In this document: positions 31,601 to 32,017 of the stretch, piece after piece
How positions within the stretch are numbered: position 1 is the stretch's first letter
Layout of the letters: every line of letters starts with the position of its first letter
From: Eledone cirrhosa
Taxonomy: Eukaryota
Direction: 5' to 3'
Assembly: GCA_964016885.1 (NCBI GenBank)
Contig: OZ024743.1
Coordinates: 194,060,001 to 194,124,000, forward strand
DNA length: 64,000 nt
The notes under the pieces: generated by a model
What the model saw: only the letters and a program-made list of their open reading frames with translations
The model's database searches: none
Told to the model about the DNA's origin: nothing
Position numbers and translations under genes: made by a program

Positions 31601-32017
31601 ACGGTAAACATTGATACAATTCAAAATCAAGTACTCGACGTATATTTAGAATGAGAAACTGCGAAGTAGTTTCAGATGTTAAAGTCCTTTATTGGTAATG
31701 TTGTGATACATATTTCAATGACGACAGTGGCCACATGATTCTGTGTACCCAGTGTCGTGACATCATCAGACAGCTTCTCATATAATAAAGCACAGGGGAA
31801 CTGACAGGCGATTCAAGAACACACGCCTTGTCTGTTCCCTTGTCGTTTCTGTTTGGATTGCCTTGGGAACGTAACCTTATTATATAAAAAGCTGTCTGAT
31901 GATGTCACGGCACTGGTTACACAGAATCGTGTGGCCACTGTCAGCATTGAAATATGTATCACAGCATTACCAATAAAGGACTTTAACATCTGAAACTACT
32001 TCGCATTTTCTCATTCT
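31601..32017. mobile_element. Palindromic mini-element with mirror-image hammerheads
   Basis: Arms 31648-31790 / 31875-32017 are reverse complements; flanked by microsatellites. Confidence 0.88.
31891..31965 (+). ncRNA. Type I hammerhead with extended stem II (mirror copy 31700-31774 on minus)
   Basis: gctgt-CTGATGA-[46 nt stem II incl. tggttacac/gtgtggcca]-GAAA-tatgta-TC-acagc; perfect 5 bp stem I. Confidence 0.72.

Follow-up and report, generated by a model that had tools for sequence, protein, structure and literature searches.

Insertions of Penelope-like elements (PLEs) are the closest described counterparts of the locus considered here. In PMC3846280 an inverted, shorter pLTR is described beside a direct pLTR, the two standing head to head, with an optional tail at one end and a palindrome at the pLTR 5' end. 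The account in PMC8557442 likewise includes an inverted 5'-truncated copy, a tail of 30-40 bp and a (TA)n bias in PLE insertions, while PMC4209133 reports opposed hammerheads 100-700 bp apart that derive from truncated PLEs. According to PMC11167929, both strands of the target are cut and extended in vitro by a purified PLE protein, which begins copying at two sites on the RNA with a match to the tail; insertion does not require hammerhead cleavage. For head-to-head junctions, PMC3846280 favours self-priming on an antisense template and not priming at both ends.

The element described here (E1) is likely a two-armed stub put into a TA microsatellite by a Penelope-like RT/endonuclease, and its mirror layout was likely built anew at insertion, as in each of its relatives. 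It lies within the window, that is, the whole stretch of 64,000 nucleotides of Eledone cirrhosa DNA that was analysed, which is rich in microsatellites and retroelements and has ORFs with RT domains, one of them with RT and GIY-YIG. E1 is a mirror-image repeat of about 420 bp whose arms (31648-31790 and 31875-32017) are 143 nt each and identical at 133 of 143 positions, with 10 mismatches and no gaps (E = 2e-105 in the self-alignment of the window), in agreement with the palindromic arms of about 143 bp in the original prediction. That prediction had placed the element at 31601..32017; the palindrome is real, but the arms start at 31648, and 31602-31640 is a one-sided extension. This extension (39 nt, minus strand) is present at the left end only and is unique in the window; it is a candidate PLE tail of the subfamily to which E1 belongs, or alternatively flanking DNA. 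It is unlike the commonest tail of the family, and its outer 23-24 nt join family sequence in two of the listed joints (31623>31985 and 31624>31949), both of them short-sided and under the 30-letter caution level.

More specifically, the inverted arm (31641..31790, minus strand), the stretch 31648-31790 of which mirrors the right arm, is a 5'-shortened copy of the family unit, and the direct arm (31791..32017, plus strand) is 227 nt long and comprises a 5' hairpin, a linker, the hammerhead and the 3' end, with family depth climbing from its 5' end to its 3' end. The 84 nt between the arms are the 5'-ward continuation of the right arm and start with the hairpin of the family unit (31792..31843, plus strand; 18 pairs and a 13-nt loop, with a predicted fold of -34.0 kcal/mol for 31791-31874). 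A foreign spacer at the centre is rejected, given that this sequence continues the right arm and that its hairpin is homologous in other copies. E1 is in effect a 227-nt direct arm joined head to head with a copy that lacks the first 84 nt of the 5' end. Microsatellites that end in (TA)n flank it on both sides, with (CA)n then (TA)n on the left (31522..31601) and (CT)n then a long (TA)n on the right (32018..32790); they are the likely target, and a target-site duplication is unreadable within them. There is no ORF in this copy. E1 belongs to an abundant repeat family that carries the hammerhead and is one of its decayed copies, and the 10 differences between its arms look like neutral decay because some of them break stem I (31701) and stem II (31944).

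The hammerhead and pLTR-like reading of the arms is upheld. Each arm, read outward, has the predicted order gctgt-CUGAUGA-46 nt-GAAA-uaugua-UC-aca(g/a)c, and the conserved core (C3-A9, G12-A14, A15.1-U16.1 and H17) is present in both. In the right-arm type I motif (31891..31965, plus strand), which was recovered by the scans, stem I has 5 bp, the CUGAUGA core occupies 31896-31902 and GAAA 31949-31952, and the cut is predicted after 31960. Its stem III (31952-31959) consists of 2 bp and a 4-nt loop and is self-complementary at 8 of 8 positions, G.U included. The left-arm motif (31700..31774, minus strand) is damaged by an arm-private change at 31701 that breaks a stem I pair, a pair that the family majority retains (in run X1, 42827 of a depth of 44564 show T>C). 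A scan under strict type I criteria yields six motifs in the window, whereas 100 dinucleotide shuffles average 0.2 and never exceed 2; it detects the right arm and misses the left because the second-outermost stem I pair is broken there, and a relaxed scan detects both. A core pattern with 5-35 nt spacing misses E1 and is not above chance (3 matches, with 11 of 100 shuffles reaching 3). No hammerhead model of Rfam matched E1, where the 5 matches up to E = 10 were all to microRNA hairpin models far below threshold, and over the window the 150 of 192 matches listed were just microsatellite-driven microRNA matches.

The canonical G10.1-C11.1 pair is absent from both arms, as had been noted, and stem II (46 nt) is a symmetric rod of 20 positions based on U10.1.U11.1 in its place. 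In the left arm 15 positions are paired and 5 mismatched (the basal U.U, two C.C, a G.G, and a C.A at the tip), and the acgaca/ugucgu pairing claimed for this copy is present; the right arm also has 15 paired and 5 mismatched positions. In the predicted ensemble, the in-register stem II pairs on the 10.1-11.1 side have probabilities of only 0.00-0.06, and a register slipped by two bases, in which G8 and A9 are paired, is predicted at 0.4-0.6 in the right arm and 0.2-0.25 in the left. Bases G5-A9 are unpaired at 0.08-0.27 in E1 versus 0.87-1.0 in the PLE hammerhead of the window, which served as a single control. The U.U closure and the slipped register would lower the expected hammerhead activity without excluding it, since some natural ribozymes tolerate U.U. 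An extended stem I was also considered, and was not recovered in the right arm once the core was held open in the fold.

The U10.1.U11.1 base is no damage private to E1, as most of the family shares it by depth (T makes up 94% of the X1 depth at 31903). A minority of the family carries G at 31903 and A at 31904 at near-equal counts (57 and 57 contigs in X1), and the same minority is found in RAD reads (219 and 229 of about 450, from few loci). If linked, these two letters would yield G.U, A-U and U-A pairs and would disrupt the slipped register; in similar fashion, family changes at 31908/31943 and at 31923 would, if linked, preserve or lengthen the stem II pairing. In run X5, loose ends (99 reads behind 31903 and 88 before 31945) suggest a subfamily with a still longer and different stem II, the sides of which look complementary by eye. 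A speculative reading, to which we would give a low probability, is that the parent would be a non-coding RNA parasite of a PLE, about 270 nt long, with the conserved 5' hairpin and the 20-position stem II hammerhead, in which the majority U10.1.U11.1 slips by two bases and locks G8/A9 while the minority G10.1/A10.2 restores the catalytic register.

The two hammerheads of E1 lie on opposite strands, such that each strand carries one sense and one antisense motif. Whole-E1 transcripts fold as a long duplex in both directions (-263 and -255 kcal/mol), with a core unpaired probability of 0.0. A read-through RNA of E1 is accordingly predicted as a 143-bp duplex with its core fully paired, and the copy as inactive. 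The mirror layout would silence cleavage and not serve it, because the transcript of the whole element, from either strand, folds as a duplex with the core paired. This prediction bears on the proposal that the palindrome, both arms and centre together, is a mobile unit that spreads whole, as the original prediction had suggested; the transcript of such a unit would be a long duplex with its hammerhead paired shut.

The same proposal can be examined with the older relatives in the window, which the original prediction had placed at 36884-37155 and 41530-41800. Their two-arm layout and their relationship to E1 stand (E1 scores 146 against the copy at 36.8-37.2 kb, with a shuffled maximum of 37), but they are not independent of each other. 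E2 (36819..37153, minus strand) is an older, decayed, head-to-head relative with a different junction and both cores broken, by a 3-nt deletion in one arm and an altered GAAA in the other; its arms are just 62% alike. E3 (41531..41865, plus strand) is a duplicate of E2 and not a separate insertion, with 3 differences in 382 nt. Both sit inside one inverted duplication (35999-37249 / 41435-42711, 96% identical) that extends about 820 bp beyond the end of E2. Two separate events are rejected on these grounds, and E2 and E3 are a single insertion copied by inverted duplication. The region as a whole (35999-42711) is a 6.7-kb nested inverted structure with outer arms of 1.2 kb and further inner inverted pairs at 37364-37509 / 39932-40077 and 40220-40332 / 41128-41240.

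The layout is common to E1 and E2, and their centres are homologous, as expected of a palindrome that spreads whole. E2 carries a hairpin homologous to that of E1 at 31792-31843, so the claim of a related spacer was correct as to homology; the 84-nt centre belongs, however, to the right arm as its 5' portion, hairpin included, and the centres are related because both direct arms reach the same 5' end of the family unit. Compared with E1, E2 is longer on the 5' side by 14 nt in its inverted arm and by 4 nt in its direct arm, placing the two junctions 14 nt apart. At the four-way informative ungapped sites, arms group by element at 13, by side at 1 and crosswise at 0, which argues against copying of the whole palindrome, as that would tend to group arms by side. 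This test is strong, not final, for gene conversion between arms could also group them by element.

Further evidence comes from public runs, four of the seven listed containing part of E1 and none being on record as RNA. The family was mapped at 80% likeness in three contig sets of one sample and one RAD read set, all under the same species label; run X4, from another organism (share 0.08), was left out. The three contig runs gave 2360, 2389 and 2341 matching contigs (about 2,350 per run) and the RAD set 1516 reads, and the family pattern had 0 matches in metagenome contigs and 0 in viral contigs. Summed contig depth, which is no copy number, is 116,000-128,000 at 31979-31992 versus 265-465 at 31797-31810 (less than 0.5%), and raw reads number about 690 versus about 3 at the same positions. 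Depth falls stepwise from 3' to 5', as it does for truncated retrocopies, although the low central depth may owe something to faster divergence of the centre or to hairpins that assemble poorly. The 3' ends are of two kinds: in 24, 14 and 22 contigs the match ends at 31640 and a shared tail follows, which is also present in 122 RAD reads behind 32016, and in 24, 23 and 21 contigs copies exit at 31641 straight into TA repeats. Loose ends at 31828 (24 and 17 contigs) lead into a diverged hairpin with a similar loop and, by eye, several sense-strand G.U pairs. The hairpin is thus inherited from the parent unit and not made at insertion, because homologous versions of it occur in E2 and in other copies.

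The arm-to-arm joints in these runs are similarly informative. The listed material covers 15 of 36 joints, plus 11 rows with intervening letters, and 24 of about 7,200 pieces. Seven of the listed arm-to-arm joints are readable (31691>31974, 31694>31881, 31695>31828, 31723>31945, 31727>31863, 31734>31853 and 31775>31867), and, mapped on the unit, all seven differ from E1 and from one another. Five more (31720>31942, 31722>31828, 31723>31792, 31740>31858 and 31740>31945), with unknown intervening letters, were set aside and may mark merely where a diverged stem II stops aligning. None of the listed contig joints is amplified, with depths of 3-32 versus 11-34 for near-unique flank. The whole-palindrome proposal does draw support from one of the 24 listed pieces, which crosses the E1 junction (X1 record 1, 31669-31840; 12 differences in 172 nt, 0 gaps, depth 11.8). 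This contig may be allelic or orthologous to E1, or else a duplicate, a mosaic contig or a genuine second copy, and a few duplicated or recurrent copies with the E1 junction may exist. It is nevertheless the only listed piece of its kind, and E2 and E3 count as one insertion with another junction. The original suggestion that the palindromic form itself propagated, with copies sharing an arm/spacer junction, is largely refuted by the 14-nt difference between the E1 and E2 junctions, by the 13:1:0 grouping and by the seven joints, as well as by the low central depth, and spread of the palindrome as a unit is very improbable. Inversion junctions that differ between copies, as they do here, are what the original prediction itself had named as its refutation.

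A head-to-head stub made separately at each insertion is the reading that we prefer, and its steps would be as follows. A PLE enzyme would cut both target strands and prime a cDNA at each cut end, both on RNA of the same kind. One would reach 31791, the base of the hairpin and likely the 5' terminus of the RNA, and the other would halt 84 nt earlier (31875), after which the two would be joined head to head. The hammerhead would be that of the parent RNA and would act, if at all, as a dimer via its self-complementary stem III. The start of the direct arm agrees within about 4 nt among E1, E2, one contig start (31791) and one joint (31792), and because of this coincidence it likely marks the 5' end of the parent RNA. 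Both arms of E1 also share the minority letter at 31884, 31970, 32005 and 32012 (majorities are 71-93% of X1 depth), which is consistent with one source molecule for both arms.

Alternatively, the origin could be of the PLE type and the mirror arm could have arisen at the 5' hairpin, where one cDNA or RNA molecule primed itself or snapped back, the route preferred in PMC3846280 for head-to-head PLE junctions. A stable hairpin does lie at the centre of E1, and three of the seven readable joints are near-perfect folds (around 31865, 31943 and 31974). On the other hand, the inverted arm of E1 begins 84 nt downstream of the direct-arm start with no intervening letters, the arms of other copies end at unrelated places, and the hairpin loop is homologous between copies, indicating that it was inherited. 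Self-priming is on balance unlikely for E1, if less so than propagation of the whole palindrome.

Assignment of E1 to the PLE type, by either priming route, would follow from its layout: an inverted shorter arm beside a direct arm, a type I hammerhead in the repeat, a 5'-truncation gradient and insertion into a microsatellite. No ORF-bearing parent of the family was found within the window, so the PLE link of E1 rests on anatomy. The RT and GIY-YIG element of the window has a terminal repeat different from that of E1 and is not its parent, and six short motifs had 0 matches in the supplement of PMC8557442, where long entries are shortened. The same RT and GIY-YIG element (43.8-49.6 kb) is nonetheless an analogue of the proposed arrangement. 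It is arranged head to head and bears a hammerhead at each outer end, and a stub palindrome built from its end alone, extended by 56 nt on one side, lies at 51653-52215. Inverted repeats flanking a short centre in a TA-rich target could also be the long termini of a MITE-like DNA transposon that had captured a hammerhead. The variable arm lengths, the 5'-truncation gradient, the one-sided extension and the two kinds of 3' end are retroelement traits, however, the unit length is not fixed, and constant termini and a TA duplication are largely absent across the copies, which leaves this explanation barely credible and the least probable of those considered.

The window contains several further elements of related appearance. 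The RT and GIY-YIG Penelope-like element is present at 43819-49630 and 49203-52215, in two broken head-to-head copies with CUGAAGA hammerheads at the outer ends (44073-44115, minus strand, and 49316-49360, plus strand), and its end recurs at 51653-52215, 1-89 and 7153-7461. A 448-bp head-to-head palindrome in (TA)n lies 770 bp from E1 (32785-33232) and has hammerhead-like motifs with a U3-A8 core (UUGAUAA in the right arm), a 61-nt stem II and a 13-nt insertion near its left end. E1 had been called unrelated to it, correctly (score 22, shuffled mean 26), and kinship of E1 with this and the other palindromes at 33417-33801, 51653-52215 and 59207-59721 was rejected (scores of 22-30, within the shuffled range). 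A 1.6-kb foldback with 516-nt arms lies in (TA)n at 59207-60828, and a near-perfect palindrome of 112 bp that consists of its outer end only (37651-37762) is a further example of a stub from a longer element. Additional palindromes, most of them in (TA)n, are found at 33417-33801, 52420-52611 (almost perfect, 99% over 185 nt), 3056-3427, 27362-27812 and 35453-35511; that at 27362-27812 contains a CUGAUGA...GAAA core at 27607-27632. Other hammerhead-like motifs occur at 9019-9056 (plus strand), 9406-9485 (minus strand, with a 40-nt stem II region) and 39497-39535 (plus strand). A dispersed, partly tandem repeat family with a unit of about 150 nt is present at 744-1383, 5934-6162, 6549-6743, 30354-30540, 38512-38631, 56101-56634 and 61709-62156, and interleaved pairs of non-LTR retrotransposon copies with RT domains at 11190-13725 / 20150-22839 and 17554-19962 / 25068-26402.

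As a single decayed stub, E1 alone is of small importance. Its family, in turn, is a large natural record of the points at which arms start and stop in PLE-type insertions, and this record bears on how inverted PLE ends arise, by priming at both cut ends or by self-priming. Hammerheads with a long stem II and a U.U base are probably undercounted, because Rfam misses the E1 motif and the core search described in PMC8557442, which used a spacer of 7-17 nt, excludes such a length. Cleavage could readily be compared between the two forms of the stem II base that occur naturally, and, if they do represent off and on states, they would form a natural pair for testing whether hammerhead cleavage matters in PLE-type movement.

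Among known systems, the EN+ PLE complex insertions (Adineta Pen2a/Pen2/Pen3a in PMC3846280; Fig. 2 of PMC8557442) are described as having, like E1, unequal head-to-head arms, a type I hammerhead in the repeat, a microsatellite target, an extension of 30-40 nt at one end and a palindrome at the 5' end of the longer arm; E1 differs in being an ORF-less copy with a whole insert of only about 420 bp. PMC8557442 was also the only work found in a literature search for octopus, hammerhead and Penelope together. The PLE hammerheads reported by Cervera and de la Pena 2014 (PMC4209133) are similarly of type I, with a 5-bp helix I, a 2-bp helix III and a self-complementary loop of the dimer type, and occur as dual motifs on opposite strands 100-700 bp apart. 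In contrast to these, helix II of E1 is a 20-position rod and not one of the 6-8 bp given there for PLEs, U.U replaces a G10.1-C11.1 pair that is there called highly conserved, and the extra base between A9 and 10.1 is missing. A literature search found no PLE hammerhead whose stem II is as long as this, and a paper that it did bring up concerns viral helices of 6 bp; the PLE hammerhead variants of Lunse et al. and the supplement of PMC8557442 may bear on this point.

Hammerheads with U10.1.U11.1 (Perreault et al. 2011, PMC3088659; axolotl HHR_Amex2, PMC7229834) resemble E1 in the U.U at the base of helix II, the 2-bp helix III and the tetraloop. Unlike them, E1 has G.U as the next pair, a far longer stem II and a slipped register of 2 nt, with G8/A9 paired, that is predicted to win. 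For the axolotl retrozyme HHR_Amex2, PMC7229834 reports weak cleavage as a monomer (22% in 1 h) and better cleavage as a dimer. Head-to-tail tandem units of the E1 family were absent from the window, and no tandem-type joint occurred among the joints listed (15 of 36), the query being one without the family tail. Animal non-LTR retrozymes (PMC7229834; bioRxiv 10.64898/2026.07.22.740005), on which the review PMC6765202 also bears, are like the E1 family in the features reported for them: a short non-coding unit, a type I hammerhead, a high copy number and a probable dependence on PLE enzymes.
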